Source of the DNA: a bacterium
GTDB lineage: Bacteria; Electryoneota; JAOADG01
Reading direction: 5' to 3'
Length of the DNA: 64,000 bases
NCBI GenBank assembly: GCA_963681965.1
Contig: OY820579.1
Coordinates: 1,472,001-1,536,000, forward strand
A model generated the notes under the pieces. It was not told the origin of the DNA. It did no database searches and saw only the letters and a list, made by a program, of their open reading frames with translations. The translations under genes were made by a program, and so were the position numbers. Position 1 is the first letter of the stretch, and every line of letters begins with the position of its first letter. Positions 9,159 to 45,351 of this stretch are shown in pieces.

Positions 9159-9478
9159 AGATTGCGATGTTGCAGGATTTTTTTTCGAAGCTGCCGTATC
9201 TCTCGCAATTAAATGCCAAACATGCGGTAGAAGCGATTGCAGCAACCGAACGGCAACTTCGCAATACCGACGAGAAAGCTCGAGTAGCTGCGCAGTTGCA
9301 GTTACAAAATTCGCAATCGTCGATTCAAACCGATACAAATCGTCGACACAGTCGAAAATGGTTTCGCTTCGGTTCCCATGACAACAAACAAGAAGATGAG
9401 TCAACTGCATCCACCGAGCAATCGGCTACCGAACAACCAAACACTCAGAAAGGTGGAAAGGTAGACCGTTACGCATGA
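9155..9478 (+). CDS. Hypothetical protein in flagellar operon
   Basis: GTGA and ATGA overlaps with both neighbours; ends KGGKVDRYA. Confidence 0.6.
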   Translation: MKIAMLQDFFSKLPYLSQLNAKHAVEAIAATERQLRNTDEKARVAAQLQLQNSQSSIQTDTNRRHSRKWFRFGSHDNKQEDESTASTEQSATEQPNTQKGGKVDRYA

Positions 9479-11000: not shown

Positions 11001-11666
11001 ATGATTGAGCCAACAAATCTGAATTATTCCGATTGGCCTCCTGGAGAAGCGCTGGGATTACGTCGGTTGGCACACGACCTAATGACTCCGATTACCGTTT
11101 TAATGGGTAATTTACAACTCTTTTTAATGCGTAAAGATTTGCCACCTCCCGTCGCTGCGAAAATAGAAGACTTGTACAAACAGGCTCAGCACCTGATGAA
11201 AATGGTCCAGGATTCATCGCAACACGCATACGACACAGTATGGTCCGGCACCAGTGGTTCGATTGCCGAACGTTGGGAAGCTGGTAAGGAAGTCGCCAGC
11301 AGCGTATTGACTCGTGCTGGAGTTGCTGTCGACATCATGCAACCAACGCCGACTGTTATTTGGAATGGTGAACCGGAAGCTTGGCGCGAGTGGATGGGTT
11401 CAGTCTTTGCATCGGTTGCCAATCGTATGGAGCGCGGTGGGAAAATCGAATTATCTGCCACTGACCGCGGATGGAAATTAACCGCTTCGCATTTGAATCT
11501 TGAATCCAATAATTTTCCGGAATGGTTAGCCAGTCTGCGAGCAGAGCAAAGTGATATCAATCTTGCCGGCTACCGACGCTACTGCGAATTATTAGTGATC
11601 AACTCTTGTATTCCACAGGTCAACTTGGAAGGAAAGAACTTGACGATCGAGTACAATCTCGGCTAG
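11001..11666 (+). CDS. HisKA-domain protein with degenerate ATPase domain (histidine phosphotransferase-like)
   Basis: H-box LAHDLMTPITVLMG; no recognisable N/F/G2 boxes; no sensor domain. Confidence 0.6.
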   Translation: MIEPTNLNYSDWPPGEALGLRRLAHDLMTPITVLMGNLQLFLMRKDLPPPVAAKIEDLYKQAQHLMKMVQDSSQHAYDTVWSGTSGSIAERWEAGKEVASSVLTRAGVAVDIMQPTPTVIWNGEPEAWREWMGSVFASVANRMERGGKIELSATDRGWKLTASHLNLESNNFPEWLASLRAEQSDINLAGYRRYCELLVINSCIPQVNLEGKNLTIEYNLG

Positions 11667-15812: not shown

Positions 15813-16559
15813 ATGACAGCAATACCCTCGAAATTCGATAAAACTGAAATCGCACCGCTGACCGCTGCGAAGCATGTTCAGACTACTGCTGACCGGAAAA
15901 AAGCCGAGCAAGTCGCCAAGCAATTCGAAGCGGTTCTGGTGGCGACGATGGTGCGCGAGATGCGTCAGGGAACAGAGTTGTTTGGATCAAGCGATCCTTC
16001 GGCAAAAATGTTCGACACCATGTTCGATGAAGCATTGGCGACCCAGATGGGAAGTACTGGCAATGGTTTCGGTATCCGCAAAATGGTGCTGGATGCACTG
16101 GATCGCACGCAACACAAATTTGAGCCGACCAAAGACTTTAAGCCGGGTGTGAAGCAATGGGATCCGATGATCGAAAAAATCGCTACGGAAGAGGGTGTCG
16201 ATCCTAATCTGGTGCGCGCAGTGATGGAACGCGAATCCGGTGGTCATCAGACTGCGAGATCGCGTGCCGGTGCTTGCGGTTTGATGCAGTTAATGCCGGA
16301 TACCGCCCGGTCGCTGGGTGTCAAACAGATTTTCGATCCCGAACAAAACCTGCGCGGCGGCGTCAAGTATCTCAAAGAACAAATCGATCGCTTCGGTCGC
16401 GTCGATCTGGCACTGGCAGCCTACAATGCCGGACCAAATGCGGTTGAGCGACACCGCGGTATACCACCTTTCAGCGAAACACGAAGTTATGTGAGTAGTA
16501 TCATGAACCGACTCCAAAGTACCCTACTACCAACTCGAGAGGAGGACGCAAATGACTGA
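15813..16559 (+). CDS. flgJ: FlgJ rod-binding domain fused to SLT (GH23) lytic transglycosylase
   Basis: AKQFEAVLVATMVREMR rod-binding motif; ESGG, GLMQLMP, AAYNAG, ETRSYV SLT motifs. Confidence 0.88.
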   Translation: MTAIPSKFDKTEIAPLTAAKHVQTTADRKKAEQVAKQFEAVLVATMVREMRQGTELFGSSDPSAKMFDTMFDEALATQMGSTGNGFGIRKMVLDALDRTQHKFEPTKDFKPGVKQWDPMIEKIATEEGVDPNLVRAVMERESGGHQTARSRAGACGLMQLMPDTARSLGVKQIFDPEQNLRGGVKYLKEQIDRFGRVDLALAAYNAGPNAVERHRGIPPFSETRSYVSSIMNRLQSTLLPTREEDAND

Positions 16560-17052
16560 GCAGATTAAGGAATTAATCGAGTTGATTCGTTCCGAAGAAA
16601 ACCTGATGCAGGATTTCTTAACCGTTCTTGATCGCCAGAAAGTACTGTTACTCGAAAATCGACACGAAGAATTCGAAATGACGGTAACCGAACAGGAACG
16701 CTTATTAACCTCCATTCAACATCTCGAACAGAAGCGGATCGAAGTAATCGTAATGATTGCGAGTGGTCTGAAGATCGAAGGTGAAGAACTCACACTGGCA
16801 CGCTTGATCGAGATGACGCTGGGTGAATTCGACGAGGAATTGCGCGAATTAAAACGATCGCTGAATCGCTTGGTCGATCGCATTCGTAAAGCAAATCAGG
16901 TCAATGCGCATCTGGTTCATCGCTCGTTGAATTATCTCCAGAAATCGGTTACGTGGTTGATCGATTCCGGCGACTTAAGCGTGACTTATTCTCAAGCCGG
17001 TGAAATGAATCAATCGGCAGTCGGTGCCGTGTTGTTGAACAAGAAACTGTAG
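16552..17052 (+). CDS. flgN: Flagellar export chaperone FlgN
   Basis: All-helical 166 aa, NQVNAHL and C-terminal TYSQAG; directly before flgK. Confidence 0.85.
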   Translation: MTEQIKELIELIRSEENLMQDFLTVLDRQKVLLLENRHEEFEMTVTEQERLLTSIQHLEQKRIEVIVMIASGLKIEGEELTLARLIEMTLGEFDEELRELKRSLNRLVDRIRKANQVNAHLVHRSLNYLQKSVTWLIDSGDLSVTYSQAGEMNQSAVGAVLLNKKL

Positions 17053-17060: not shown

Positions 17061-18416
17061 ATGCCGTCGCTATTGTCTGCACTGCTGTCAGCACGCTCCG
17101 CATTATTGTCGAATCAGTCGAGTATGGCTGTCATTTCGCACAATATGTCGAATGCGAATACCGATGGCTATACCCGTCAATCGGCGGAAATGGTGGCAAT
17201 GGCTGGCATCGGCGATGCCAATGCCGCATACGGATTTGGTGTTGATGTCGCTTCGGTGACGCGGTCGCGAAACGATTATATCGATCGAAGCTTGCGTTCC
17301 GAACAAGGCGAATTAAGTCGCAACGAATATCTGCACGATCAATTATCGCAACTATCGCAAGCGATCGGTGATCCGACCGAAGGCGATTTTGTTACTTCGA
17401 TCAATGAATTCTGGTCGAGTTGGCAGGATTTGGCGAATGCGCCGGAATCGATTGCTGCCCGTGCTTCGGTACAAACCGCCGGTCAGGAAATGTGTGGTGA
17501 ATTTCAGCGCATTGCATTAACGATCGATGACTTGTCTTCCAATGCAAATTCGACGATTGATTCCGCAGTAACGAACGTTAATCAAATTTCGGCATCATTA
17601 GTCGAGCTGAATCGACAAATCGCTCGCGAGACATCGCAAAGTCGGCAACCCAACGACTTGATGGATCAGCGCGATAAACTTCTCGATCAACTTGCCAAAC
17701 TTGGCAATGTTTCAACTTCGACCGGCACCAATGGTGCATTTCGGGTACAATTCGGCGATACGATCCTCGTCGAAGGTGAGAGCGCTATTCAATTGCGCTC
17801 GACTCAATTAGCTGGCAAAACCGTCGTGATGTGGGAAGGCGGCGATCGGGAAGTAAAGCTCTCCTCCGGACAAGTTGCAGGTGCGTGCGATACATCGAAA
17901 CAGCTAAACGATTGGCGAGCAAACCTAGATACAATTGCGAAAACCATCGCCGACAAAGTGAATGAAATTCACCGGGTTGGTCGCGGTCTCGATGGATCGA
18001 CCGGAGTCAATTTCTTTGCTGCTAATATTACCAGCGCCGATCAAATGCGGCTAGATCCTTCGGTTCTTACTAGCGTCAATCGGATCGCTGGTTCAGGTGC
18101 CCAAGGGACAGGCGACGGTTTGACCGCGCGTGCTATCGGTAAACTATCAACGCTCTCGATCATCGATGGCAAAACTGTATCGGCATCCATTTCAGGTTTC
18201 ATCGGTACAGTCGGAACGGTAACGGCAAAAGCGGAAAACGATCGCGCGCAAGCCGAGGCGGGTGTTCAGCAAATGGATACCTGGCAAAAGTCAGTTTCGG
18301 GTGTAAATGTTGATGAAGAATTGATGAATATGATGAAATATCAACAATCGTTTGCGGCAGCAGGAAAAGTGTATACCATCGTGAATTCGATGATGGATAC
18401 TATCCTCAAATTATAG
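17061..18416 (+). CDS. flgK: Hook-associated protein FlgK
   Basis: SHNMSNANTDGYTRQ, NDLMDQRD, SVSGVNVDEE...YQQSF. Confidence 0.96.
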   Translation: MPSLLSALLSARSALLSNQSSMAVISHNMSNANTDGYTRQSAEMVAMAGIGDANAAYGFGVDVASVTRSRNDYIDRSLRSEQGELSRNEYLHDQLSQLSQAIGDPTEGDFVTSINEFWSSWQDLANAPESIAARASVQTAGQEMCGEFQRIALTIDDLSSNANSTIDSAVTNVNQISASLVELNRQIARETSQSRQPNDLMDQRDKLLDQLAKLGNVSTSTGTNGAFRVQFGDTILVEGESAIQLRSTQLAGKTVVMWEGGDREVKLSSGQVAGACDTSKQLNDWRANLDTIAKTIADKVNEIHRVGRGLDGSTGVNFFAANITSADQMRLDPSVLTSVNRIAGSGAQGTGDGLTARAIGKLSTLSIIDGKTVSASISGFIGTVGTVTAKAENDRAQAEAGVQQMDTWQKSVSGVNVDEELMNMMKYQQSFAAAGKVYTIVNSMMDTILKL

Positions 18417-19349
18417 GTGATGACAATGCGAATTACCCAATTATCGCTTTATCAGCAACAGATGTATGAGAATCGAAAGCAGTACGCCAACCTGGCGGAA
18501 TCGCAACTCGGTTCAACTACCGGTACACGAGTCAACACCGCCGAGGACGATCCGAATAATGCAGCGCAATTGGTTCGATTGGCGACCGATAAAGAGCGTA
18601 GTAAACAATATCAGCGGAATATTCAGGATGGTCTGGATCGATTGCAGACGACCGATAATGCCTTGTCGCGTATCGATCAAATACTTACCTCGGCACGTGC
18701 TAAAGCTGTTTCCGGAGGTACCGATTCGATTACCGACGATGATCGTCAGAAGATTGCAACCGATTTGGATCAAATTCTAAATGATCTAGTTGCAACCGTC
18801 AATCAGCAATCGGATGGACGATACCTGTTTGGTGGCGCCACCAACGATAAACCCCCACTACAGATCACGAAAGCCGATGACGGTACGATAACGCAGATTA
18901 CCATGAATTGGGAGGAGATCGCTACCCCGGTGTTGCGCGATATTGGCGACGGTGAGGAAGTGTCGGTGACTGCTAGCCCACTGATGTTTCGATCGGACGA
19001 TTCGGGAACTGCTCCCGATGTATTCACGGAATTAATTCGGTTGCGCGACGATTTACGCGGGAACGGCACAACGACACAAGTTACCACTCACTTGGATGCC
19101 ATCGATAAATACCGCGCGAAAGTAAACGGAACGCAAGCTCAAGTTGGTGAATGGGTTAATCAACTCAATGCCGCCGATATCCGGTGGAAAGATCGCGATC
19201 TGCGCATTACCGATCAAACGAGTAAACTGCAGGATTGGGATACCGCTGAAATCATTATGAAGTACAAACAGGCGGAAACTTCATATTCCAGTTCGCTGCA
19301 GATGACGTCGCAGATCTTCAATTTGTCGTTGTTGAAATATCTTTCCTAG
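18417..19349 (+). CDS. flgL: Hook-associated protein FlgL
   Basis: MRIT N-terminus, EDDP, GRYLFGG, LSLLKYL C-terminus. Confidence 0.95.
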   Translation: MMTMRITQLSLYQQQMYENRKQYANLAESQLGSTTGTRVNTAEDDPNNAAQLVRLATDKERSKQYQRNIQDGLDRLQTTDNALSRIDQILTSARAKAVSGGTDSITDDDRQKIATDLDQILNDLVATVNQQSDGRYLFGGATNDKPPLQITKADDGTITQITMNWEEIATPVLRDIGDGEEVSVTASPLMFRSDDSGTAPDVFTELIRLRDDLRGNGTTTQVTTHLDAIDKYRAKVNGTQAQVGEWVNQLNAADIRWKDRDLRITDQTSKLQDWDTAEIIMKYKQAETSYSSSLQMTSQIFNLSLLKYLS

Positions 19350-19370
19350 CTAGTTGACTAAGGAATCCAT

Positions 19371-21059
19371 ATGCGTGCTCCGGATATCTCGATATTAATT
19401 GCCACCTATAATCGGAAAGATCTCGTACAGGCGTGTCTGGATCGAGTATTCGAACTGGCACCCACTGAACCACCGTTCGAAGTCATTGTGGTTGATAATG
19501 CTTCGACCGATGGAACGGCAGAAATGTTGGAAGCATACCCAAATCCGATTGTATTGGTTCGGAATTCGGTGAATCGCAATTTTTCCGGGGCAAACAATCA
19601 GGCTGCCGAGTTAGCTCGGGGCGATTGGTTGGTCATGTTAAATGCCGACACTTTGCCCGAAGCGGGCTGGTTACAGGCACTTTTAGCCGAAGCGAAACTT
19701 GATCCGAAAATTGGGGTGACAGGCTGCAAGTTGCTCTACCCAGAAGATCGTACAGTACAACATGCCGGAGTGGCAATCGGAGAGCAAAACCATCCGTTCC
19801 ATATTTACCGCAAAGCGCAGGAAGACTCCCCGATCATTAATCATCGCCGGGAATTGCAATCAGTGACTGCCGCGTGTTGGATTGTACCGACGAAATTGTA
19901 TCGCGAGTTGGGGGGATTTGACGAACGATATGTGAATGGCTTCGAAGATGTCGATTTTTGCTTCCGGGTTCGTGAAGCCGGTTTGAAAGTCTTTTACACT
20001 CATTTGGCGACGGTGTTGCATTTCGAAGGGGCGTCTCCGGGAAGAAACAGCAATAACGGTGATAACTGGCAGATCTTTCGCGATCGATGGGAGGGAAAAT
20101 ATTTCCCCGACATCTTGATGATTTATGCGCGAGACGGTCTCCGCGCGATCCCAATCAAATTCAATACCGTACGTCTTATTTCCGACACAGCCCAGCGACA
20201 ATTCGAGATCAACTATGTTTGGGATCTGATTAATCACCAGCAATACGAACTTGCAGCTCAGCAATTACAAATAGTTAAGGAAAAATACCCCGATGAATTT
20301 AATGTTCGGGAATTCGAAATCAAGTTGTTGATTGCAACTGGGCATCTAGTAGAAGCGATTGATTTAGCTGAAATGCAAAGTGCATCGCTACCGATCTGGT
20401 ATCATGCCAAACGCACCATCACACTGGCTAAACGTGCCGGTCAACTGGAGCGTGCTACTCATTTACTCACCGCTTGGGAAACAAAGCTCGAAGAGGATGA
20501 AGATCGAGCCGAATGGTGGGCGTTGCGAGGTGATGTATTTGCCAAACAAAGCGATTGGGTATCAGCCGGTGAGTGTTATCAAAATGCTGCACAACTGCGC
20601 CCGACACTGGAAGAAGTTATGGTCGGGAAAGCGAATATCTTGTTGGCTCAATCGAAGGCTCCCGAGGCTGAATATGCGTATCTGGAAACGATCCATCGAC
20701 ACTGGGAATCGAGCCGGGCACACCTCGGATTGGCACTGAGTTTGCTTATGCAAGGTAGGAAGCACGAGGCATTGGATGCATTTGTTGCATCCCGGAGATA
20801 CGATCCTACCGACTTGAACTGCACACTGTATCTGGTCTCGTTAGCACAAGAACTAGGGCAGTTGACTCTTGCAGAGAAAACTCTGCAAGACGCGCTGAAG
20901 CGAATGCCAAATCATACCGAATTAATGCTGTTTCTGGGTTCGACTAAAGCCAGCGCAGGGGATCGCGACGGCGCTAAAGACATATCGAAGAAAATATTGA
21001 AAATAAACCCGGGTGATCAAGGCGCGAAGAAATTGTTGGCATGGGCGGAATCGTCGTGA
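19371..21059 (+). CDS. GT2 glycosyltransferase with C-terminal TPR repeats
   Basis: ILIATYN, VVDNASTDGT, LNADT, FEDVDFC; TPR-like helices after about aa 270. Confidence 0.9.
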   Translation: MRAPDISILIATYNRKDLVQACLDRVFELAPTEPPFEVIVVDNASTDGTAEMLEAYPNPIVLVRNSVNRNFSGANNQAAELARGDWLVMLNADTLPEAGWLQALLAEAKLDPKIGVTGCKLLYPEDRTVQHAGVAIGEQNHPFHIYRKAQEDSPIINHRRELQSVTAACWIVPTKLYRELGGFDERYVNGFEDVDFCFRVREAGLKVFYTHLATVLHFEGASPGRNSNNGDNWQIFRDRWEGKYFPDILMIYARDGLRAIPIKFNTVRLISDTAQRQFEINYVWDLINHQQYELAAQQLQIVKEKYPDEFNVREFEIKLLIATGHLVEAIDLAEMQSASLPIWYHAKRTITLAKRAGQLERATHLLTAWETKLEEDEDRAEWWALRGDVFAKQSDWVSAGECYQNAAQLRPTLEEVMVGKANILLAQSKAPEAEYAYLETIHRHWESSRAHLGLALSLLMQGRKHEALDAFVASRRYDPTDLNCTLYLVSLAQELGQLTLAEKTLQDALKRMPNHTELMLFLGSTKASAGDRDGAKDISKKILKINPGDQGAKKLLAWAESS

Positions 21060-22363
21060 ATATAGGCGTTTTACAGTTGGCAAGAATGGGCGATTGGGTG
21101 CAGACGATGCCTCTAGTCGCCAATTTGCGCTCAAAATATCCCGATGCGAATATTACACCTATTTGCGATCGTCGCGTCTCAGATCTGGTTACGGAAATCA
21201 CGGATACAACTCCGATCGCGTTACCGATTCCCGAGCGGATGCTGGCTCGTGACGTACCGGCGATGCTTTATTCCATGCTTCATCGATTTTTAGCCGAAGT
21301 TCCGCAATTCGATCTGATCATTCGCTGTAACGATACTCCATTGGCGCGATTATGGCAGCATATCCTTGAAAATCCGTTTCGACAAAATACTCAAGATGCG
21401 AATCTTCGTACCGTTCGTTCGGAAGCTTTGATTCGAATTTTACCGTTGATTGATTCCCGGTTACGACTCCACATCAGTGACCTCTGGCGCTGGCGTGTTG
21501 CCGATTCTCAGACAATTCCACGATCGCATTGGAATGATACCGTTCGACAGATCGCTATCGCAGTCGGTTCCGGTGGTGTGGAACGTGCTTGGGGTGAGGA
21601 TCGATTGCTTCGCACCATCCAGATTGCCAGTGATTCAGCGCCAGTAACACTAATCGGAAGCGAATCGGAACAGGATTTTGCCGGAAATATCGCGCGCCAA
21701 ATCGATCTGAATCGAAATGTTACCAATAAAGTTGGATGCTGGTCGATAAAAACTTTGAATAGTTGGTTAAGTCAGACGGGCGTTGTGTGTGTTGCATTGG
21801 ATACCGGATCACTGCACTTGGCAGCGCTATCGGGAGCAGCAACTTTTGGATGTTATGAGGGTGAAGCGGTTCCCGAAACGACTGGTGCCGTCGGATCTTG
21901 CAGTGCTGGGGTCGAAAACGAAGCATCGATTCCGATCGATCAATGGGAAATAAGCTTACGACGATTCCTGGTTGCTCCGAATCAATTTCTTCCAGAGAAT
22001 GACAGCGAATTTGTGATGGAACAAACCGACCGAATTCGAGTTCTTCGGGCAACATCACTAACTGAAACAGAAATAAAAATTGTCAACTGGTTAATCGACT
22101 TTGTGCACTGTAAAAGTAACTGCACAATGCGCGACTTGCGAGATCCGTGGCGATCGCTCGAGCAGTGGTTGACGAATTGGGAAAACCGATCGAATGAACC
22201 GGGTTGGGAGTTTAAAGAAGTCGTTCCGGAATCACAATTTGAGCACATTTTAACTGCACTCCATTGGTCGGTATTGGAAAGTATCAATCGACCACCTTCA
22301 CTTTTCCAGCGCTCGTCAAATAAACAAGAGGATCGACATGCGTCCGTCGCACTGGCACGTTGA
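21041..22363 (+). CDS. Divergent GT9 (heptosyltransferase-like) glycosyltransferase
   Basis: QLARMGDWVQTMP and DTGSLHLAA motifs. Confidence 0.75.
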   Translation: MGGIVVNIGVLQLARMGDWVQTMPLVANLRSKYPDANITPICDRRVSDLVTEITDTTPIALPIPERMLARDVPAMLYSMLHRFLAEVPQFDLIIRCNDTPLARLWQHILENPFRQNTQDANLRTVRSEALIRILPLIDSRLRLHISDLWRWRVADSQTIPRSHWNDTVRQIAIAVGSGGVERAWGEDRLLRTIQIASDSAPVTLIGSESEQDFAGNIARQIDLNRNVTNKVGCWSIKTLNSWLSQTGVVCVALDTGSLHLAALSGAATFGCYEGEAVPETTGAVGSCSAGVENEASIPIDQWEISLRRFLVAPNQFLPENDSEFVMEQTDRIRVLRATSLTETEIKIVNWLIDFVHCKSNCTMRDLRDPWRSLEQWLTNWENRSNEPGWEFKEVVPESQFEHILTALHWSVLESINRPPSLFQRSSNKQEDRHASVALAR

Positions 22364-24068
22364 AAAAATCGTTGCGTCGGATGGCAATGTAACCGTTCGG
22401 GTGAACGGCAAATTACTGCATAGTAAAGTCGCTCCATTGCGTGAAGCGGATAAATGGGCATCGCAACAACCGGAAGCACCAGCGTATGCGATTGTCGGTG
22501 CTGGGATGGGGTGGGGTGTTCAGGCGCTTCTCAAACGCTTTCCCACTTCGAAAATTGTTGTCCTCGAACCTGTTCCCGGATTAATACCGGATCTCCAGTC
22601 GCAGTTTAATGGTTATAACGGGTCCATTCGAATCGTCTCACTTGCTAATCGAATCAATGCGTCAGTCGCCCTTTCGTCGATCCAGCAACATCTTGGATCC
22701 GACTATCGCATCGTCGAGGGATATCCGAATGCTGCCGAGTGGGATAATAGCGGTATTGTCGATCGATTGCGATTTCGATCGAAACTATCGCAACAACCGC
22801 CTCGGGTATTGGTTGTTACCCCAATTTACGGAGGTTCGTATCCGATTGCGCAGTATTGTGTGAATGGACTGCGAATGCTCGGTTGCACTGTCGAATTACT
22901 CGATAATGCACATCTTGACCCAGCACGGCAGGAAATTGATACAATCACCGACCGACCCGACCATAAACAGCAATTGACTGGAATACTGGTTTCGTTTGCT
23001 GCAGAACGAATCGCCGCGAAAGCTGCTGCCATGAAAGCCGACTTAGTATTGGCGTTGGCACAAGCTCCGGTAACATCTCGGGTTTGGGATGAGTTGCGAA
23101 ATGCGGGTGTAGCTACAGCATTCTGGTTTGTCGAAGATCATCGATTGTTTCCCTACGGATCGAATATTGCCCCACGCGTCGATGCATTCTTTCCAATTCA
23201 ATGCGATGAATGGACCGATGAACTATCAAAGCAGGGTGCACACCTCCATTACTTACCACTTGCTGCAGACGAATCGATACACAGTGAAGTTGAATTGAAC
23301 GAATTCGAACGCGGACGATTTGGTTCCGATCTATCGTTTGTTGGTGCTGGATACTATAATCGCCGGAATGCGTTTCTCACGTTTATCGATCAGAATATGA
23401 AAATTTGGGGTGATGGGTGGCGGAGTGCCGACGGTTTATCACGGTTGGTGCAAGAGGATGGACGACGAATCTCGACCGAAGAATCGATTAAAATCTTCTC
23501 AGCATCGAAGGTGAATATCAATCTTCATTCCAGTACTTACTATCAGGATGTCAGTCCGGATGGCGATTTTGTCAATCCCCGAACGTTCGAAATAGCCGCT
23601 TGTCGCGCCTTTCAAGTAATTGACGAACGCTCGCTATTACCGGAGTTGTTTTCACCCGAAGAAATGCCGACAGCCGGCACCCTTGATCAATTCCGAATGC
23701 AAGTTAATTCGGCACTAGCTGATTCTGGTTATCGACAACAAACCACCGAACTCGCTTATAACCGAGTTGTTGCCGACCATCTATACACCCACCGGATGGA
23801 AGAATTACTGGGCTATGTCTTTCGAAACCGTTCTCCACTGAGCCACTCCGCAATGGGTCAAGTGTCGGTTGAGAAATGGATCGAGGAAGCTGGAGACGAT
23901 CCCGATCTCGTCGAATATCTTACGCGATTTCGCGATCGAAAGCGATTGACGTTATCCGAAATTGCCGAAGAAATTGAATCGCGACGAGAACGTTTGTCTT
24001 CTACAGAATCGGTTTTCTTATTGATGAATGAATTTTACAAGTGGGGAAAAGAGCACGGTGTTATTTAG
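22338..24068 (+). CDS. CgeB/Glyco_trans_1_2-like glycosyltransferase with Maf-like N-terminal domain
   Basis: LHSKVAPLREA, YLPLAAD, SFVGAGYYNR, VNPRTFEIAAC, HLYTHRM. Confidence 0.8.
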   Translation: MRPSHWHVEKIVASDGNVTVRVNGKLLHSKVAPLREADKWASQQPEAPAYAIVGAGMGWGVQALLKRFPTSKIVVLEPVPGLIPDLQSQFNGYNGSIRIVSLANRINASVALSSIQQHLGSDYRIVEGYPNAAEWDNSGIVDRLRFRSKLSQQPPRVLVVTPIYGGSYPIAQYCVNGLRMLGCTVELLDNAHLDPARQEIDTITDRPDHKQQLTGILVSFAAERIAAKAAAMKADLVLALAQAPVTSRVWDELRNAGVATAFWFVEDHRLFPYGSNIAPRVDAFFPIQCDEWTDELSKQGAHLHYLPLAADESIHSEVELNEFERGRFGSDLSFVGAGYYNRRNAFLTFIDQNMKIWGDGWRSADGLSRLVQEDGRRISTEESIKIFSASKVNINLHSSTYYQDVSPDGDFVNPRTFEIAACRAFQVIDERSLLPELFSPEEMPTAGTLDQFRMQVNSALADSGYRQQTTELAYNRVVADHLYTHRMEELLGYVFRNRSPLSHSAMGQVSVEKWIEEAGDDPDLVEYLTRFRDRKRLTLSEIAEEIESRRERLSSTESVFLLMNEFYKWGKEHGVI

Positions 24069-24077
24069 GAGGAATCG

Positions 24078-25355
24078 ATGGAACCGTTGATTGGTATTGT
24101 AATGCTTACGCATAACCGGCTACCGATGTTGAAAATCGCGTTGCCGTCCATGTTGCGCTCCTTGACGCTTCCTGCCGAAGTGATCATTGTCGACAATGCA
24201 TCAACCGACGGAACTGGCGAATTTTTGAAGCGTTTTCAAGCGCGCTACTCCTTGCCGAATGTGTTTTCGTTACGAGTTGATCGCTTACCCGAAAATATCG
24301 GAACAGCCGCCTATAATCACGCGATGAAAGATTTAACGGCTCCGGTATTGATTGAGGTTGATGATGATGTGGTGCAATTTCCCAATGAATGGGATCGAAA
24401 ACTTGTTGACGCATTGATTCACGGCGATCGCATTGGATATGTCTCTACCGATGTCGTGAAAGACGATTGGACCGATGGAAATCGAGCGGATGGTATAACC
24501 TTTGGCACAACCTTCGAACAGCTACCCGATGGCGGTAAGTTGGAAATTGGGGTTGTGGGCGGTTGGTGTGCTGCGACTCCGCGAACGCTGTTTCAAGCAC
24601 TGGGTGGATTCCCAATGCGTGGTGCGGGGCTGTTTGAATTGGAAGATGGTGCTTACGCAAATCTATTGTTTCAATACGGGATGCGATTTGCAATCCATAC
24701 CGATGTTAAAGTATATCACGCCAGTGGTCCGAAGATCGCTAAGGCGATGGGATTGTGGCAAACCTGGTTTGCCAAATACGATCCCGAAGTCGATCCCGCC
24801 TATGCCGACATGCGACTGTTTGGTGAAGCGCAATCAGGCGACGGTGAATTACCAGAGATTCTGCAAATTGACGAATCAGTCAATGACTTAATTCATCTGT
24901 TGCGTCAAGAAGAACGGATGTTGTTGCGATTTGTCGGAATACTTGATCGACAAAAACTGCTTCTGTTCGAACATCGGTACGCCGAGTTCGAAGATTCAGT
25001 TTCTGAGCAGGAAGCGTTGTTGGTGCAATTAAATCGCGTGGAATCGGAACGTAAACGAACGATCCTTAAAATTGCAGAAGCACTTCATATCGGTCACGAA
25101 GAGACAACGTTAAACGATCTTATCTCATCGACGATGGGTCAATTCGAAGAAGAGTGGAGCGAAGCAAGGCGGTTACTTCATCGTATTTCCGAACGATTAA
25201 CGCGAATTGTGAGTGACAGTTCGGTGAAGACTACCAATTCCGTTCAGAATTGGAAGGAATCGATTTCATCATTAATTGCTGTGCGAAGATCGAAAGCGCG
25301 TACGACGCCAGTATTTCAATTACCCAATGATCCCGATTTGGGTATAGCAATTTGA
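24078..25355 (+). CDS. GT2 glycosyltransferase fused to a FlgN-like C-terminal domain
   Basis: LTHNR, IVDNASTDGT, VDDD; aa ~265-375 align without gaps to FlgN at 16552. Confidence 0.85.
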   Translation: MEPLIGIVMLTHNRLPMLKIALPSMLRSLTLPAEVIIVDNASTDGTGEFLKRFQARYSLPNVFSLRVDRLPENIGTAAYNHAMKDLTAPVLIEVDDDVVQFPNEWDRKLVDALIHGDRIGYVSTDVVKDDWTDGNRADGITFGTTFEQLPDGGKLEIGVVGGWCAATPRTLFQALGGFPMRGAGLFELEDGAYANLLFQYGMRFAIHTDVKVYHASGPKIAKAMGLWQTWFAKYDPEVDPAYADMRLFGEAQSGDGELPEILQIDESVNDLIHLLRQEERMLLRFVGILDRQKLLLFEHRYAEFEDSVSEQEALLVQLNRVESERKRTILKIAEALHIGHEETTLNDLISSTMGQFEEEWSEARRLLHRISERLTRIVSDSSVKTTNSVQNWKESISSLIAVRRSKARTTPVFQLPNDPDLGIAI

Positions 25356-25365
25356 GTGTCTGTAA

Positions 25366-27084
25366 ATGAGCCCGATAATTTCACCCAGTCATGCGACAAG
25401 GCATTACCGAAAAGTATTGGTAGTGTCGTGGAATCGTATGGGCGATATGCTCCAGTTGACACCGATATTCGAGTCGTTTAAAAAGTACTCGCCGGAAACT
25501 GAACTGCATCTGACCGTTTCACATAAATTCGAGGACGTTGCAAAGCTGATTGGTGGGGTTTCGAAAATAATTCCCTTCAATTTGAACTGCGTTCTCGAGC
25601 AAGTTCGCAGTACCGATCATACAATTCAATTGCATCGGATGCTAACGAAATTTGTCGATGAATTGCGATGTGAGCAGTACGATTTAGTCTTGAATGTGAC
25701 GCACAACCGGTTAACTGCCCTTTTTATGCATCTGCTGGGTGTTCCCGAAAGTCGGGGACTACTCTACGACGATCACGGATATCGCGCGGTGCGAGATCCC
25801 TGGAGTCGCTTCTTTTTTATTGCCGATCTGATTCGCGGACAAAGTCGGATCAATTTGGTTGAAATACAACTCGGAATTGCCGGATTTCACCCCGACCGAC
25901 CGATGCGAATCGAAATTCCCGAAGAAGTACAACATCGAATTGATGCTGAAATACTTAGCTGGTCGATTGCTACCGACAAGATCGTAGCGATTCAAATTGG
26001 TGCATCGCTGCCGAACAAAGAATGGAATCACGCATCATTTGCCGAAATTGCCCGACGACTTGTAGCGAATGGATTTACACCGATCTGGGTGGGTGCACCA
26101 TCGGAATTGGAAAAGATTGAATCGGTTGCGATGAATGTTCCGGGATCGATCAATCTTGCCGGTAAAACCTCTGTTGCCGAATTAGCCGCAATAATGAAAC
26201 GATGCCGGTTGTTGTTAACGAACGATACCGGAACGATGCATGTTGGTGTGTGTGTTGGAACGCCGATCATCTCGCTGAATGTGGGTACACCACTGTCGCA
26301 TGAGACCGGACCGTATCAAGCGGGATCGACAGTGATTGAACCGAAGATCTCTTGTTATCCGTGCAGTTTTCACGTCGAATGTCCCCACTATCGTTGTCAT
26401 GATGAAGTCGATGTCGATTCCGTCTGGTCGGAAGTAGCTAAATCGCTTGAGATCGCAGTGGATTATGCAATATCAGATCGTGTCCGAGTATGGCGAACAG
26501 CATTCGATGAAAATGGTTTCTGGGAACTTCGTCGCATCAAACCTGAAGCTGCAACTGCCGACGAATTGGCTGCCGTGATGTGGGCTGAGATCTGGAAACG
26601 ATTTCTTGCACACCGACCGATTGAGAAGTCATTGATAGAAGCCATTCAACTGCGCTTCGCTCGCGAATACACGAACGATTCGATAGCACCCGCTTTCGCC
26701 AATTTGTCGGAACGGATGAGCCATCTATCGAAAATGGTTTCGATTGCCCGAAGTGGAATCCAGATTGCCGAAGCATTACGGCGATTGGATCCGATTCGCG
26801 ATGTCGCGAGAATCGTCGAATTGGGTAAACAACTTGAATCAATCGAACAGAATCTTCAACTGGTGGGATTAGTGCACCATATCTGGCGTCCGCTGTTTGC
26901 AATTTTTGTCTTTGGAAAAGACGCGATGGTTGGCGATTCGATCGATGTGTTGGCGAAACAGACAAGTGAATTGTTTCAAGATTTCGTTACTATTGGCGAA
27001 ACGATGCTCGATCAGTCTACGAATTTTTCAAAGCGGTACAGCCGTCCTTTCGATGAACCGGTGCACGTATGCCTTCCGCAATAA
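25366..27084 (+). CDS. GT9 (heptosyltransferase-like) glycosyltransferase with helical C-terminal extension
   Basis: RMGDMLQLTP, GAS..NKEW, LAGKTS, TNDTGTMH, CYPC...C...C. Confidence 0.88.
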   Translation: MSPIISPSHATRHYRKVLVVSWNRMGDMLQLTPIFESFKKYSPETELHLTVSHKFEDVAKLIGGVSKIIPFNLNCVLEQVRSTDHTIQLHRMLTKFVDELRCEQYDLVLNVTHNRLTALFMHLLGVPESRGLLYDDHGYRAVRDPWSRFFFIADLIRGQSRINLVEIQLGIAGFHPDRPMRIEIPEEVQHRIDAEILSWSIATDKIVAIQIGASLPNKEWNHASFAEIARRLVANGFTPIWVGAPSELEKIESVAMNVPGSINLAGKTSVAELAAIMKRCRLLLTNDTGTMHVGVCVGTPIISLNVGTPLSHETGPYQAGSTVIEPKISCYPCSFHVECPHYRCHDEVDVDSVWSEVAKSLEIAVDYAISDRVRVWRTAFDENGFWELRRIKPEAATADELAAVMWAEIWKRFLAHRPIEKSLIEAIQLRFAREYTNDSIAPAFANLSERMSHLSKMVSIARSGIQIAEALRRLDPIRDVARIVELGKQLESIEQNLQLVGLVHHIWRPLFAIFVFGKDAMVGDSIDVLAKQTSELFQDFVTIGETMLDQSTNFSKRYSRPFDEPVHVCLPQ

Positions 27085-28658
27085 TTACCTGTGTCGAATC
27101 GGCGAAAAGCGGAGATTTAACCGCTTATTGGAAGACGCCCTCCGGTGGAAAGCGATATCTTCATAGTCGCGTCGATCCAATCCACGAAGCGCATCAGATT
27201 GCCGCATCGCTTGATTGTTCGTTTAAAGAAGAATTGGTAATCGAGGGGATCGGACTGGGTTATTTGGTCGAGATACTACTAGAAGAAAATCCACAATTGA
27301 TAAAAGTCGAACTCTATGATCCCGATCCCGCTATTACTGAAATTTTGAAACTATTTCGACCAAAAACATCGCTTTTATCCGATCCGAGAATTATCTGGCA
27401 TTCTGGTGAGCAACCTTCGGTAACAGTCAATTACCGGTCACCGGCGGTTTTGGGACTGCAATACAAGGATTCGAAAACGACCCAATCGAGAGTAATGTAT
27501 CCTCGATCGCACCGACCTACGGTTATTTATCTCAAATCGGGATACTTCATTGAACGAGAATTGCTCGCAGCATTGGCTGCCGAAGGTATTCGCACTTTCG
27601 CATTGGATTACAAAGAGGGACACAGCTTTATCGAGCAGTTACTGGAGATTGCGCTCCATGAGCATCCGGATTTTTTATTGACGGTAAATCATTTTGGATT
27701 CGATTGCAACGGCGAACTAATCCGGCTGCTTGAGAAAATCAATTTGCCGGTAGCAAGCTGGTTTGTCGATTCACCGAGTTACATCTTATTGAATCACACC
27801 GAAAATCGGTCCGGGTTGGTGACCCCGTTTCTCTGGGAAGAAGCGTATGCCGAGCGGTTAAAGGGATGGTTCGATACCCCCGTTTGGCTCCCCTTGGCGG
27901 GTGATGAAACCCGATTGGTGAAAGACATACAATTCCATGAACAACCGGGTATTTTTGTCGGAGATAGTCAACTGGTAGCCGCTGCCGGATGGCGGAAGAT
28001 GTTGCCTACCGATTCGATTTGGGATATGCGAATCGAAACCGGTGTTCAAGCGATTCGGAGTTACCGACAACCTGTGTGGAATGTAACGGACTCGATCAGG
28101 TGTTCGAACCTAAAAGAACAACTCGATCTCGAGTCGGCAATCGTATTGGAAGCAACGCGACGTCAGCGGTGGGAAGGCGTGAAGGATCTTTCTGATGCGG
28201 TAGCATTGACCGTGGTTGGTGACGAAGGATGGTTGAAAGTACCCGGCAATATTTCGATCCACAACACAGTCGATTTCTACGAGACGCTCCCGGAGTGGTA
28301 TGCTAATGCAGCCTTTGTGGTTAACTGGACTAGTTATCAAATGCCGACTGCGGTTAATCAGCGGATTTTCGATGTACCGCTGTGTGGTGGCTATCTAGTG
28401 ACTGATTCACAGACTGATCTAAGTCGGTTGTTTTCACCTGAATCGTACCCAGTATTCAATCATTCGGGTGAGTTAGTTGGATTGGTACAATGGTTGCTCA
28501 GGAATCAAGCAGCAGCGGAGACGCTGCGTCGAAAACAGGTCGAGCAGATTCTAAGTAATCACACCTACCGGCATCGCATTCGATCACTGTTACGAACAAT
28601 GAGTACAAAAAGATCGCACTCTACAACTGTATCTCATTGGGAAACCGTTGGTATTTAG
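27069..28658 (+). CDS. CgeB/DUF3880-like glycosyltransferase with Maf-like N-terminal domain
   Basis: LHSRVDPIHEA, SWFVDSP, WLPLAGD, VNQRIFDVP, HTYRHRI. Confidence 0.8.
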   Translation: MPSAIITCVESAKSGDLTAYWKTPSGGKRYLHSRVDPIHEAHQIAASLDCSFKEELVIEGIGLGYLVEILLEENPQLIKVELYDPDPAITEILKLFRPKTSLLSDPRIIWHSGEQPSVTVNYRSPAVLGLQYKDSKTTQSRVMYPRSHRPTVIYLKSGYFIERELLAALAAEGIRTFALDYKEGHSFIEQLLEIALHEHPDFLLTVNHFGFDCNGELIRLLEKINLPVASWFVDSPSYILLNHTENRSGLVTPFLWEEAYAERLKGWFDTPVWLPLAGDETRLVKDIQFHEQPGIFVGDSQLVAAAGWRKMLPTDSIWDMRIETGVQAIRSYRQPVWNVTDSIRCSNLKEQLDLESAIVLEATRRQRWEGVKDLSDAVALTVVGDEGWLKVPGNISIHNTVDFYETLPEWYANAAFVVNWTSYQMPTAVNQRIFDVPLCGGYLVTDSQTDLSRLFSPESYPVFNHSGELVGLVQWLLRNQAAAETLRRKQVEQILSNHTYRHRIRSLLRTMSTKRSHSTTVSHWETVGI

Positions 28659-28678
28659 AAGCATGAAAAGAGGAAAAT

Positions 28679-29317
28679 ATGAAAATCAGCGTTGACAATC
28701 AGCTTCGTCAAATCAATCTCGATCCCTCGATACAACTCCGAGTGGGCATCAAAGAATTGGTGGATAGCCTGACTGAATCGCGGAGACGGGTTGTTCGAAT
28801 TGTCGTCGATGACGTAGAGATCACCGGAAAATTCGATCACGAGAAGTACGATTTGTCGTTTTCGGATGTCGAGAAAATCGAATTGTTCACCGCCGATCCA
28901 TTTGTATTAGCACTCGATTCAATTCCGATGCTGCAAGACTTTATCATGAAAATGAAGCTTGAAATCGGGTCAGCGACTGAATGGTATCGCTTTGGAAGAG
29001 TTGATGAAGCCAGCAATTCAATGGCTCGAATCGCCGATGGATTGACATTGATCACTCACACGATTGAACGACTTCGCAGCTTGTTAGAGCTTGATTTTTC
29101 TTGTCTGATTTTCAATGAGAAACCGATTCTGGATCATTATTCGAAACTTGCCGAAATGATCGAAGAGTTGATCGGTGCTCAAAATGAAACGGATTGGATT
29201 CTCGTAGCCGATCTGCTCGAGTATGAATTACTGCCTGTAATTGAGGACTGGGATGGTATCCTCGGTCTGTTGTCGCAAAAAGGATCGGAACTGCTCAATG
29301 TCGCAGCAATTGCTTGA
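28679..29317 (+). CDS. Hypothetical helical protein of flagellar glycosylation loci
   Basis: Good RBS (GAGG); C-terminal DWILVADLLEYELLP. Confidence 0.65.
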   Translation: MKISVDNQLRQINLDPSIQLRVGIKELVDSLTESRRRVVRIVVDDVEITGKFDHEKYDLSFSDVEKIELFTADPFVLALDSIPMLQDFIMKMKLEIGSATEWYRFGRVDEASNSMARIADGLTLITHTIERLRSLLELDFSCLIFNEKPILDHYSKLAEMIEELIGAQNETDWILVADLLEYELLPVIEDWDGILGLLSQKGSELLNVAAIA

Positions 29318-29764: not shown

Positions 29765-29801
29765 GATTGGTGAAGAGGGGTCACCACCCGAGGAGGAGAA
29801 A

Positions 29802-33711: not shown

Positions 33712-36012
33712 ATGAAACCGCTCTCCTTTCAATTGCACCGTTTCGCAATGATAATATTTCTTTGCGTTACACTGTCATCATCACTATCCGCTCACACTAT
33801 CCGAGTCAGCTCGCTCAATCCCGATCGGTCAGTCAATAGCACTCTTCATTATCAAGGTCTTCCAGTTCCGGCAGGAAATTTGATTCAAGTGATTAAACCG
33901 GATCCTGACGGTGTACTCAATCCTCCCGAGAATAATGGATATGTTTCGAGACACAACCGACTGGTGGGAAGTTACGCGATGGGCGATTCCGCCGCTGGTG
34001 ACGGAAACTTCGATTTTTCGCTATTCGGTCATAACACTTATACCAAATTCCTCTACTTAACTGACAATGACGGCAGTAATATCCGATTTGTTACCGGCGA
34101 TACGTTAGATGGTCCCGTCCATACTAACACCTATTTCACGATGGATGGGCGACCAGCGTTTTTAAGCGCGATCTCGAGTTCCGGAGTTTATTCCAGCTCA
34201 AGTCCATATAATCGATATTCGACTTCGACTGACCCCTACTTTGCAGTTACACCGGTGTGGGGTGGAGCAACAATCTACCTTCCCGCAACAGTCGATTCTT
34301 TTCGCACTGCGGCGCAAAATGGTGGAATAGTTTACACCAATCAGACATTATATGTGCAATTCAACGAAGACGGAACATATTCTACAAAAACCACTTCAAC
34401 TGGATCGTGGATCGTACACACCCGACCTTGGAATGGCATCATTTTCGTCGGTCCTGCAGACGGCACTTCCACTACATATACCGGGTATGTGCAGGGTGTT
34501 GTTCGTGGTAGCTATACCCTTGCCTGTCAAGGCAATATCAACATCACTGGCAATCTAGTATACTCCACCGATCCAAGCAATTCCAATTCAACCGATATTC
34601 TAGCGCTAGTTGCGCAATTGAATGTTGCGTTGACGAACAGTGTTGCGGATAGCGATCGAACGATCATGTCATTCATTATGACTATAAACGAATCTGCCGT
34701 CAACAATACCAGCAATTTTTATAATAGTCAGTACACTTCTGTCAAATCCGGCTACCTTCACTTATATGGTGGACTGGCGATGAGAAAACGGGGTGCGATG
34801 GGTCAGGGTACCGGCAGCACACGAACCGGTTACTTGAAAGACTATCATTACGACACCCGCTTATACCAACTTGTTCCGCCCGGATTTACCAATGACTCGC
34901 TTACTTCGCCATATCTATCCTCTGATCAACAATTCTACTTGCGCTGTTGGGCGGATGTGCCGCTATCGGGAGTATTTCAACCCAATTCTCACTATACCGA
35001 TATCGGACCGTTTACTTTTGGGATGGCGAATCTATATAGCATCGATCTGACGACACCCGTTTGGCATAATCTCAAAGGTATTAACTTAATCAATACTCAC
35101 AGTGGCGATACATTGATCATTGGCACGAGTACGAATATTTATTGGTCGGCAGATACCTTGATTCCGCGAGTTAATATCCTACTGAATCGCCACTACCCCG
35201 TGGGGACTTGGGATACGATCGCGACCCATATTTCTTCCACTACCAGCTATTGCACTTGGCAAGTGATCGGTGAATCGACCAATGAAGCACGAATTCGCAT
35301 CGAATCCGCCGACGATCCCAGTGTGTTCGATATGTCCAGAAACAATTTTTTAATCCAACCGATGCTTACATTGATGAATCTTCAAGGTGGCGATTCGATC
35401 TCGGTGGGAAACACAATCATCTTTTTTTGGGATGCACCGACTTACGTTAACCATTTCCATGTTTTGTTGAATCGCCACTATCCCGAAAGTACATGGGATA
35501 CCTTGGCAGCAAACTATTCCTATAACACCTCCGGACCTTTCACGTGGCAAGTTGTGGGTGAATTAACAAATTCTGCGCGCTTCCGCATCGAATGGGCGAA
35601 TAATCCCCTCGTCTACGATATGTCCTCTTCCAATATCGTCATTCGCTGCAGTACTCCCGCACCACCCGGCAACCTCACGATTTCACTGCATGACAATGAC
35701 GCGATCCTAAATTGGGATCGTGTGGATACCACTATTCTCGGCGATCCGGTGTATGTCTATGGCTATGGGATCTACTACCGATTCCAATCGGATGAAGGCT
35801 GGCGCTATCTTGATTTTGTCGATGCACCGACATTGACCTTTATCCTCGTAGGGGCTGTGCAACTAGACTCAGCGATGTATTATCGAGTGAAGGCGTATGT
35901 CACTCAAATGTCAAGTGACTCCTTCGAACGAATACGCCAAACGATCCCGGTGGATCCATTGAAACTCGAAAACACACATGGCAGACAGAGTGATCCGATC
36001 CGTCGGAAGTAG
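33712..36012 (+). CDS. Secreted multidomain protein: DUF4900-like core, two Ig-like repeats, FN3-like C-terminal domain
   Basis: Signal peptide; GDTLDGPVHTN, GYLKDYHYDTRL...PPGF; two ~95-aa repeats with LLNRHYP..TWDT. Confidence 0.65.
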   Translation: MKPLSFQLHRFAMIIFLCVTLSSSLSAHTIRVSSLNPDRSVNSTLHYQGLPVPAGNLIQVIKPDPDGVLNPPENNGYVSRHNRLVGSYAMGDSAAGDGNFDFSLFGHNTYTKFLYLTDNDGSNIRFVTGDTLDGPVHTNTYFTMDGRPAFLSAISSSGVYSSSSPYNRYSTSTDPYFAVTPVWGGATIYLPATVDSFRTAAQNGGIVYTNQTLYVQFNEDGTYSTKTTSTGSWIVHTRPWNGIIFVGPADGTSTTYTGYVQGVVRGSYTLACQGNINITGNLVYSTDPSNSNSTDILALVAQLNVALTNSVADSDRTIMSFIMTINESAVNNTSNFYNSQYTSVKSGYLHLYGGLAMRKRGAMGQGTGSTRTGYLKDYHYDTRLYQLVPPGFTNDSLTSPYLSSDQQFYLRCWADVPLSGVFQPNSHYTDIGPFTFGMANLYSIDLTTPVWHNLKGINLINTHSGDTLIIGTSTNIYWSADTLIPRVNILLNRHYPVGTWDTIATHISSTTSYCTWQVIGESTNEARIRIESADDPSVFDMSRNNFLIQPMLTLMNLQGGDSISVGNTIIFFWDAPTYVNHFHVLLNRHYPESTWDTLAANYSYNTSGPFTWQVVGELTNSARFRIEWANNPLVYDMSSSNIVIRCSTPAPPGNLTISLHDNDAILNWDRVDTTILGDPVYVYGYGIYYRFQSDEGWRYLDFVDAPTLTFILVGAVQLDSAMYYRVKAYVTQMSSDSFERIRQTIPVDPLKLENTHGRQSDPIRRK

Positions 36013-44676: not shown

Positions 44677-45351
44677 GATTGCCTCAAATAAATATTTGTA
44701 TTGATTAACTAAGAATGAGATTGCATTACACAACAATTGTTGATAATAAGAGACTTTAATTCTCGATTTCGGATCTAAGGAGGAAGAAGCTAGGTTCGAA
44801 TAGAATGATGATAAGTCTAATATAATTAGGGTACTGATTAAAGATAGAGCTTCTTCGTAGCATAGTCAAGAAACGTTTTGCAGACACAAATAAATTATGG
44901 AAAATTTGAGCTGAATTCAGATGACCAAGACACAAGTAGATGTGAGATAAGATTGAATTTGATTTTATGAGTATGATAATTAATGAGTTGTAAGAAAACA
45001 GAGTAGCCCAAAATTCAGGATGTGAGTATGGTTTTTAAAGATTATTTACCAATTGTTTACATTTGTTACTGGTTTTTGAGAAATGACTTAGTTACTAGTC
45101 AGTAGGTAATATGTTTTTTGAAAATCGGGATTCAGATTGACAGTCTGGGTAAATATTACGATATTTAAATTTGTTATTTTTTACATTGCACACGCAATTT
45201 TCAAAAATTTTATTGATTCTGTTACGAATGCAACATGAAAGCGTAAGCTTTTTGGCTGCCGTAAATTGACATAGAAAATCATCTCATCGATTGATGACAA
45301 ACAAATAACAATTATTCCCTCGATTTCGAATTGTGCCGGGGGGGAGAGCTA

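Follow-up and report, generated by a model that had tools for sequence, protein, structure and literature searches.

Introduction

How cytoplasmic O-glycosyltransferases choose the flagellar proteins they modify is only beginning to be understood. The solutions described so far are tetratricopeptide repeat (TPR) domains, as in FlmG and Maf-1, and the adaptor protein GlfM. According to one preprint, Maf-1 uses a C-terminal TPR domain for flagellin, and GlfM of Shewanella, which bridges Maf-2 and flagellin, is a bundle of four helices and 89 residues that resembles FliS/FliT in HHpred (bioRxiv 10.1101/2023.12.03.569772). For FlmG of Caulobacter, specificity lies in the flagellin-binding domain (PMC7591256). 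Here, we analyze a gene that joins a family 2 glycosyltransferase (GT2) to a duplicate of the flagellar chaperone FlgN. The gene lies at 24078..25355 of a 64,000-nucleotide stretch of DNA, hereafter the window, which comprises positions 1,472,001 to 1,536,000 of contig OY820579.1 (assembly GCA_963681965.1) from a bacterium of the Electryoneota.

FlgN itself (PF05130), which chaperones FlgK and FlgL for export, is a free protein of ~140-170 aa whose gene stands beside flgK or flgM. The C-terminal domain described here (the C-domain) shares sequence homology with FlgN over ~137 residues, resembles the fold of Pseudomonas aeruginosa FlgN (2fup), and derives from the family's own flgN. It differs from FlgN in being fused to an enzyme, in the loss of an invariant Tyr and of the conserved C-terminal third, and in a rate of evolution that is at least ten times higher in our tree. 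Placed beside GlfM and Maf-2, a comparison that is based on the published description, the fusion would likewise use a small chaperone-like helical bundle, encoded in a flagellar cluster, as a specificity adaptor. In contrast to the C-domain, GlfM is a separate protein and FliS/FliT-like instead of FlgN-like, and the enzyme that it serves is a Maf protein (MAF_flag10/DUF115) of the sialic-acid type, not a GT2. FlmG and Maf-1 share with the fusion the combination of a catalytic domain and a fused all-helical module, and the neighboring gene at 19371..21059 encodes a GT2-TPR protein itself. The module of the fusion is, however, a chaperone duplicate and not a TPR domain, and the catalytic family is a different one. 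Like the genes for modular flagellin O-glycosyltransferases in general, the fusion gene is a glycosyltransferase gene located in a flagellar cluster near flagellin. Its catalytic part was matched in Pfam by Glycos_transf_2 and related GT2 models only, and by none of the MAF_flag10/DUF115 or FlmG type. Thus, the fusion at most resembles these enzymes in the way it works, without belonging to their families. By analogy with them, we infer that the helical accessory module binds the acceptor and sets specificity. GlfM provides the precedent for the recruitment of a chaperone-like helical bundle as the part that confers specificity.

The fusion gene belongs to an island of glycosyltransferase genes between flgL and fliC, which we take to be also the position of the flagellin glycosylation island of P. 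aeruginosa. We know of no glycosyltransferase with a chaperone domain in flagellin islands of the P. aeruginosa type. A difference from these islands is that no sugar-nucleotide synthesis genes, those of the Pse/Leg type included, were detected with Pfam and NCBIfam among the proteins of the island described here, to which this search was confined.

Results and Discussion

The C-terminal domain of the glycosyltransferase is homologous to FlgN

BLASTP with composition-based statistics aligned residues 266-376 of the fusion protein to residues 3-113 of the free FlgN encoded in the window without a single gap, with 49 identities and 74 positives in 111 positions (E 2e-26). This is practically the match of about 49 in 110 residues that an earlier sequence-only reading of this DNA had counted by hand. 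With the C-terminal piece alone as query, the ungapped alignment extended over 137 residues (39% identity) for the free FlgN of the window and over 143 residues (42%) for the FlgN of G003, a genome of another genus in the same family. A profile of 10 free FlgNs matched residues 265-400 of the fusion protein in hhalign (99% probability, E 2.6e-18); the same search for a FlgN-like part in nine other island or late-flagellar proteins returned E values of 0.063 to 0.73, and these proteins were rejected. The Pfam model of FlgN recognized residues 268-373 with 32.4 bits against a cut-off of 30.5, covering only model positions 3-107 of 147. In the whole genome that contains the window (G000; 4.24 Mb, a single contig), this cut-off was passed by two loci only, free flgN and the fusion. 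The fused domain is encoded 7 kb downstream of the true flgN, as part of a 425-aa enzyme, and is not a free-standing small protein. In the ESM Atlas, FlgN clusters were nearest to the C-domain, with scores of 0.79-0.80, which are under the level that counts.

The AlphaFold2 (AF2) model of the full-length protein had a mean pLDDT of 84.4 and a pTM of 0.76. It shows a GT-A domain to about residue 235, built of alternating strands and helices over residues 1-235 and with pLDDT values mostly >90, followed by helices from 260 to 406; the tail, residues 408-425, had pLDDT values <50. The C-domain modeled with FlgN rows in the alignment reached a mean pLDDT of 81, with helices at 3-42, 46-80, 90-96, 102-125, and 132-145 (C-domain numbering) and a disordered tail. 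A mixed alignment of GT2 homologs and FlgNs misplaced the FlgN rows and was kept out of folding. In a wide structural search of 48,161 chains, P. aeruginosa FlgN (2fup_A) came first, with a root-mean-square deviation of 2.0 Å, 115 of 128 residues aligned, and a Z score of 13.0; the search tool itself notes that chance matches of helical bundles may score this high. It was followed by syntaxin-type bundles (Z 11.8) and a FlgN-FliJ fusion, 8ftx (Z 8.7). Foldseek returned no match of the C-domain model in the PDB at E <= 0.001. As the Z score of a helical bundle is not decisive, the homology to FlgN is carried by the sequence evidence.

The fusion of GT2 and FlgN is real and not an artefact of the assembly. 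At the nucleotide level, the linker between the two domains contains neither a stop codon nor a frameshift, and no in-frame ATG or GTG. The orthologue in G003, a stop-free open reading frame (ORF) of 418 aa, matches residues 1-383 and has the same architecture. The gene order around it is also identical, with flgF-G-A-H-I-J-N-K-L followed by genes for a GT2-TPR protein, a 459-aa protein, a DUF3880-glycosyltransferase, the fusion, and GT9. Logan contigs of two public runs (X1 and X3) from two studies, which are possibly the source data of the assembly and may therefore not be independent, cover 24000-25500 without differences. A Logan contig of a further run (X4) spans 24792-25287, which begins at residue 239, crosses the linker, and extends into the FlgN-like part. 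The stop codon or frameshift at the junction that would have undone the sequence-only reading was therefore absent from the run contigs and from the relative alike, and the frame is open in both. Set against these results, and against an E value of 2e-26 that persists with composition correction, the idea that an error of sequencing or assembly has brought together a GT2 gene and a second flgN, or that the similarity is one of coiled coils by chance, found nothing in its favor and retains a negligible probability.

For the catalytic domain, Glycos_transf_2 (PF00535) matched residues 7-173 with 65.6 bits (cut-off 23.3, E 6.6e-18), and 33 of 33 aligned homologs, the protein of the window included, carry N40, S42, D95, and D97 unchanged; D44 is nearly invariant. 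Foldseek matched the catalytic part to GT-A enzymes, namely PcManGT (6yv7), ppGalNAc-T2, TarS, and RmlT, with E values from 8.6e-10 to 3e-08. Because the DxD motif and the nucleotide-binding residues are kept, the GT2 domain, judged by sequence and model, is probably an active enzyme.

The fusion is confined to one family and contains a duplicate of the family's own FlgN

The relatives compared here are uncultured metagenome-assembled genomes that their depositors labeled Electryoneota, LCP-89, Calditrichaeota, or Zixibacteria. The fused form occurs in two of the 79 species genomes of the phylum, G000 and G003, at the same position in both. GT2-only homologs with ~33% identity are found in five genomes of another family (f6). 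The remaining family members, G001 (same genus, 96% complete, 720 contigs) and G002 (2.2 Mb, 100% complete), yielded no match to FlgN or FlgK and, by this gene content, are probably aflagellate. Hence, the fusion is present in both flagellated members of the family that were seen, and flagella seem to occur in some members of the family only.

In a collection of 5.8 billion proteins, the whole protein had 47 matches, and the C-domain was reached only by the protein itself (P0001) and the G003 orthologue (P0002). The closest GT2 homolog (P0003; 60% identity) is 268 aa long, ends at residue 268, and has no C-terminal domain. Other fusions were searched for among longer proteins, where the C-domain as a query found only the protein itself among 692 candidates and its profile only P0001 and P0002 among 8000 scored candidates. 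An exhaustive phmmer search of 1.84 billion representatives with the C-domain gave 12 matches at E <= 0.001, all of them 119-173 aa long and thus of the size of free FlgN. Locus searches with the fusion alignment returned 131 pattern matches in genome contigs, none of which was confirmed, and a single locus in metagenome contigs, which holds a GT2-only homolog in a non-flagellar setting. Among the papers that a full-text search on FlgN, glycosyltransferases, and flagellin glycosylation brought up, none dealt with such a fusion, judged by title and abstract. That a GT2-FlgN fusion had not been described before, as the sequence-only reading supposed, agrees with these searches, which brought up no further case in public protein collections or in the literature. 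The closest GT2 homolog, the 268-aa protein P0003, is encoded on a metagenome contig (L022, 4543-5349) in a non-flagellar setting, where its neighbors are a Rossmann-type protein of 316 aa and a protein of 480 aa.

A maximum-likelihood tree was calculated for the two fused domains together with 10 free FlgNs. One branch, with a support of 94/100, set the fused domains and the family's two free FlgNs apart from the eight FlgNs of other families. The fused domain thus represents a lineage-specific duplicate of flgN, since the tree groups it with the family's own FlgN. The two fused copies appeared as sisters (74/81), a relation that is uncertain because their branches are very long (2.16 and about 10 substitutions per site, compared to a median of 0.26). 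The simplest reading of the sequences would be a single flgN duplication in the ancestor of the family, fusion to a GT2, and fast divergence thereafter.

The fused copy has very probably lost the FlhA-docking part of FlgN

As a reference for the changes in the fused copies, we used the 40 invariant positions that all 10 free FlgNs of the phylum have in common. The fused copy of G000 keeps 22 of them. The loss is patterned: FlgN residues 1-113 retain 20 of 29 positions, but residues 114-166 only 2 of 11. The VTYxxxG motif is lost. Its Tyr146, invariant in all 10 free FlgNs, is Thr in the fused copy of G000 and Ser in that of G003, which confirms the missing C-terminal TY motif mentioned in the sequence-only reading. 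Tyr146 aligns with a Tyr of PDB entry 3opc and, in a weak hhalign alignment (E 0.016), with the Tyr counted as residue 120 of E. coli FlgN. On the strength of these two alignments, the weak E. coli one and 3opc, Tyr146 is taken to be the equivalent of Tyr-122 in Salmonella, a residue that FlgN needs for docking to FlhA (PMC8527033). The mapping was made on E. coli FlgN because Salmonella FlgN was not reached by the search of PDB sequences; phmmer with the free FlgN found nothing relevant there, and the profile of 10 FlgNs found 3opc only (E 5.8e-05). Because Tyr146 and the C-terminal third are lost, the fused domain is very probably devoid of canonical docking at the export gate.

These results divide the proposal of the sequence-only reading that a duplicated chaperone had been co-opted, either for targeting the enzyme to its substrates or for positioning it at the export gate. 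The tree upholds the origin of the fused domain from an flgN duplicate. Positioning at the gate through FlhA, on the other hand, is disfavored by the loss of the invariant Tyr and of the conserved C-terminal third.

In the fused copy of G003, only the part that corresponds to FlgN 60-113 is still recognized by the free-FlgN profile (E 4.8e-4). By the weak E. coli alignment, this part comprises the end of helix alpha2 and the first half of alpha3. In Salmonella FlgN, the binding sites of FliJ and of the cognate subunits overlap on alpha3, residues 70-102 (bioRxiv 10.1101/2020.01.10.902387). The part common to both fused copies therefore overlaps some of the known binding helix. This raises the possibility that the domain has retained an affinity for FliJ or for the FliH/FliI ATPase and parks the enzyme at the flagellar base, where late substrates arrive. 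Such a role would agree with the binding of FlgN to FliJ and FliH2FliI, reported in PMC5789064, with the FliJ site on alpha3, with the conservation of just this part in both copies, and with the appearance of the FlgN-FliJ fusion 8ftx among the structural matches. Against it, the residue mapping passes through the weak hhalign alignment, and the position aligned with Trp-78, the FliJ determinant of Salmonella FlgN, is a Leu. The latter comparison says little, as Leu is present in the free and fused copies alike. Altogether, we regard a localizing role of this kind as unlikely.

A chaperone-derived recognition module is the favored but uncertain function

The reading that we favor, and to which we give an even chance, is that the fusion is a glycosyltransferase of the flagellar island with a chaperone-derived recognition module that has given up docking at the export gate. 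The enzyme, encoded in a flagellar glycosylation island, would be a cytoplasmic GT-A glycosyltransferase. Duplication of flgN would have taken place in an ancestor common to one family within an uncultured candidate phylum of the FCB type, and the duplicate would have been joined to a GT2; the nearest relatives of this GT2 stand alone, as enzymes of about 270-320 aa. The helical domain would then serve as a recognition or adaptor module that binds an unfolded flagellar axial protein or a partner from the island and presents this client to the catalytic domain before export. Candidate clients would be FlgK and FlgL, or the flagellin, which is a paralogue of FlgL by its Pfam domains. As the docking Tyr is missing, the true chaperone would face no competition from the module at FlhA. 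In favor of this reading, the N-terminal part of FlgN, and not the C-terminal part, is the one that was largely kept, the stretch shared by both fused copies overlaps the binding helix by the weak alignment, the frame has stayed open, and GlfM and the TPR modules are precedents.

If the module acts in this way, chaperone folds have been reused as acceptor-recognition modules, here FlgN-derived and in cis, and the loss of the FlhA-docking Tyr shows what separates the binding of a client from its delivery. If the clients of FlgN are still recognized, the fusion is a natural case in which a secretion chaperone has become the domain that selects the substrates of a modifying enzyme. The protein also pairs a compact, testable domain with candidate clients, from a phylum that has no cultured model, and is known from two uncultured genera only.

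As targets, the sequence-only reading had named the hook-filament junction proteins. To our knowledge, FlgK and FlgL are a class of flagellar glycoproteins without a known dedicated enzyme, and if they are the clients, the fusion points to glycosylation of junction proteins. The flagellin appears at least as likely a target as FlgK/FlgL, because the island adjoins fliC and belongs to flagellar glycosylation throughout the phylum; flagellin is also the acceptor to be expected for islands of this sort. Three residues of Salmonella FlgN, Asn-92, Asn-95, and Ile-103, reportedly contact FlgK. Their equivalents in the weak alignment are changed in the fused copy, which makes canonical FlgK binding by the fused domain doubtful on sequence grounds. 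In a co-folding run that had no controls, the C-domain and the C-terminal 100 residues of FlgK scored 0.10 against a mark of 0.32, which counts neither way. That the module still recognizes the clients of FlgN, with the enzyme acting as a dedicated FlgK/FlgL glycosyltransferase that hands its client back to the true chaperone, seems unlikely to us.

Besides the structural Z score, which lies within the reach of chance for helical bundles, several observations weigh against a recognition module. The fused copy of G003 keeps just 6 of the 40 invariant positions, 6 in the N-terminal and 0 in the C-terminal part, and falls below the Pfam cut-off for FlgN, which may indicate decay. In the second half of alpha3 (VN..L..RS), S125 alone is kept in the fused copy; V117, N118, L121, and R124 have become D, S, K, and N, respectively, and the Salmonella residues that match N118, L121, and R124 reportedly contact FlgK. 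Between G000 and G003, the C-domain is 22% identical (33/148) with a 13-residue deletion in G003, and is thereby the fastest-evolving segment of the region; the GT2 domain is 64% identical. For comparison, the identities are 80% for free FlgN, 81% for FlgG, 55% for FlgK, 42% for FlgL, 41-60% for the other island proteins, and 82-86% for the flagellins. This divergence counts against the recognition module because an interface that is conserved along with its partners should restrain change, and 22% in the C-domain compared to 80% in free FlgN does not fit a domain bound through the interface of the true chaperone. The adjacent GT2-TPR protein, moreover, could already supply acceptor recognition.

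Much of this evidence would also suit a C-domain that is a relic or a purely structural element, that is, a generic helical appendage for stability, oligomerization, or packing against the GT domain that drifts and whose flagellar recognition is gone. The lowest conservation in the region, the deletion in G003, the long end branches of the tree, and the loss of 18 (G000) and 34 (G003) of the 40 invariant positions all point in this direction, as does the closest GT2 homolog, which does without such a domain. On the other side, the C-domain stayed free of stop codons over 168 and 170 codons in the two genera despite saturation; among shuffled sequences, 2 of 20,000 (G003) and 0 of 20,000 (G000) were open. 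The loss of FlgN positions is, moreover, patterned and not uniform. The TPR part of the adjacent GT2-TPR protein is likewise poorly conserved, with 20-40% identity per 50-residue block, so that fast evolution appears to be general for the accessory modules of the island. Plain decay is therefore disfavored, given the open frame and a neighboring TPR module that evolves equally fast, and we consider a relic or structural domain rather unlikely.

The fusion gene is part of an old glycosyltransferase island

By Pfam, the flagellar cluster of the window comprises flgF, flgG, flgA, flgH, flgI, an SLT-type flgJ, flgN, flgK, and flgL. It is followed by the island, seven tightly packed or overlapping genes between flgL and fliC that include the fusion gene. 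The genes from flgN to that of the 212-aa protein form an operon-like run, which ends shortly before fliC. A gap of 485 nt separates the island from the genes for flagellin, fliD, fliS, and a FlgM-like protein (Pfam Flagellin_N/C, FliD, FliS, and FlgM). The coordinates are compiled in Table 1. A scan for promoters and terminators in 16000-31000 found fewer sites than in shuffled sequences.

Table 1. Coordinates of the fusion gene, its parts, and neighboring genes in the window
Feature	Position	Strand	Remarks
Fusion gene	24078..25355	+	425 aa, GT2 + FlgN-like; stop codon included; single ORF; Pfam PF00535 + PF05130; syntenic 418-aa orthologue in G003
GT-A fold glycosyltransferase domain (GT2)	residues 1-250, 24078..24827	+	Nucleotide-binding motif DNASTDGT; DDD D95-D97 = DxD
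Linker GEAQSGDGE	residues 251-259, 24828..24854	+	No helix at 252-259 in AF2
FlgN-derived helical domain (C-domain)	residues 260-406, 24855..25295	+	Helices 260-297, 301-335, 345-355, 358-380, 388-406
Low-confidence tail	residues 407-425, 25296..25352	+	Takes the place of the conserved FlgN C-terminus (VTYxxxG ... NK tail); Y146, G150, N163 not kept
Free flgN	16552..17052	+	166 aa; paralogue of the fused domain (tree); Pfam FlgN E 4e-22; 80% identical to G003 FlgN
flgK	17061..18416	+	Pfam FlgK_D1, Flg_bbr_C; canonical FlgN substrate, candidate partner
flgL	18417..19349	+	Pfam Flagellin_N/C; canonical FlgN substrate, candidate partner
GT2-TPR	19371..21059	+	Upstream part of island; Pfam
Weakly heptosyltransferase-like 440-aa protein	21041..22363	+	Upstream part of island; Pfam, NCBIfam
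DUF3880 + Glyco_trans_1_2 protein	22338..24068	+	Upstream part of island; Pfam, NCBIfam
GT9	25366..27084	+	Downstream part of island; Pfam, NCBIfam
Glyco_trans_1_2 protein	27069..28658	+	Downstream part of island; Pfam, NCBIfam
212-aa protein without family match	28679..29317	+	Downstream part of island; Pfam, NCBIfam
Flagellin, 276 aa	29802..30632	+	Pfam Flagellin_N/C; candidate acceptor; 86% identical to a G003 flagellin

The downstream genes of the island have orthologues in other families of the phylum, and the DUF3880-glycosyltransferase was matched at E <= 1e-30 in 65 of the 79 genomes. In all three loci examined from other families (G015, G024, and G029), the same island is located between flgL and fliC without a GT2-FlgN gene. 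The island is thus an old, phylum-wide feature of flagellar glycosylation.

The composition of the island varies in further respects. GT9 and the Glyco_trans_1_2 protein are two ORFs in the window (572 and 529 aa), which overlap by 16 nt, and form one protein of ~1000-1024 aa in three other families (L059, 13437-16448; L060, 13523-16597; L061, 8134-11196). As the two parts are split here and joined elsewhere, the island shows fusion and fission of modules alike. The GT2-TPR protein is 562 aa long in the window, 560 aa in G003, and ~1100 aa in family f3 (L059, 3467-6763; L060, 3324-6644), where ~570 extra N-terminal residues precede the homologous part. Families f3 and f5 encode an extra protein of 540-622 aa directly before the DUF3880-glycosyltransferase; it is unmatched by the island proteins of the window and absent here.

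G000 has three short flagellin genes for proteins of ~276-280 aa, and G003 likewise has three. The two others in G000 (contig C1, 3094643-3095482 and 3096280-3097119) lie 1.6 Mb from the cluster, and their products are 86% and 67% identical to the copy of the window.

The FlgJ homolog (15813..16559) has a rod-binding domain and, instead of a glucosaminidase, a lytic transglycosylase domain of the SLT type. The interval between fliA (8268..9158) and flgF contains genes for a 505-aa protein (9475..10992) with a weak DUF6115 match only and for a 221-aa protein (11001..11666) with a HisKA domain, in which no ATPase domain was detected. Beyond the flagellar cluster, the window contains very large ORFs of 766 to 1432 aa at 33712..36012, 37984..40905, 45331..49311, and 58173..62471, and a scan of the first gave a weak match to DUF4900. 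The GC content falls to 38% around 44-46 kb.

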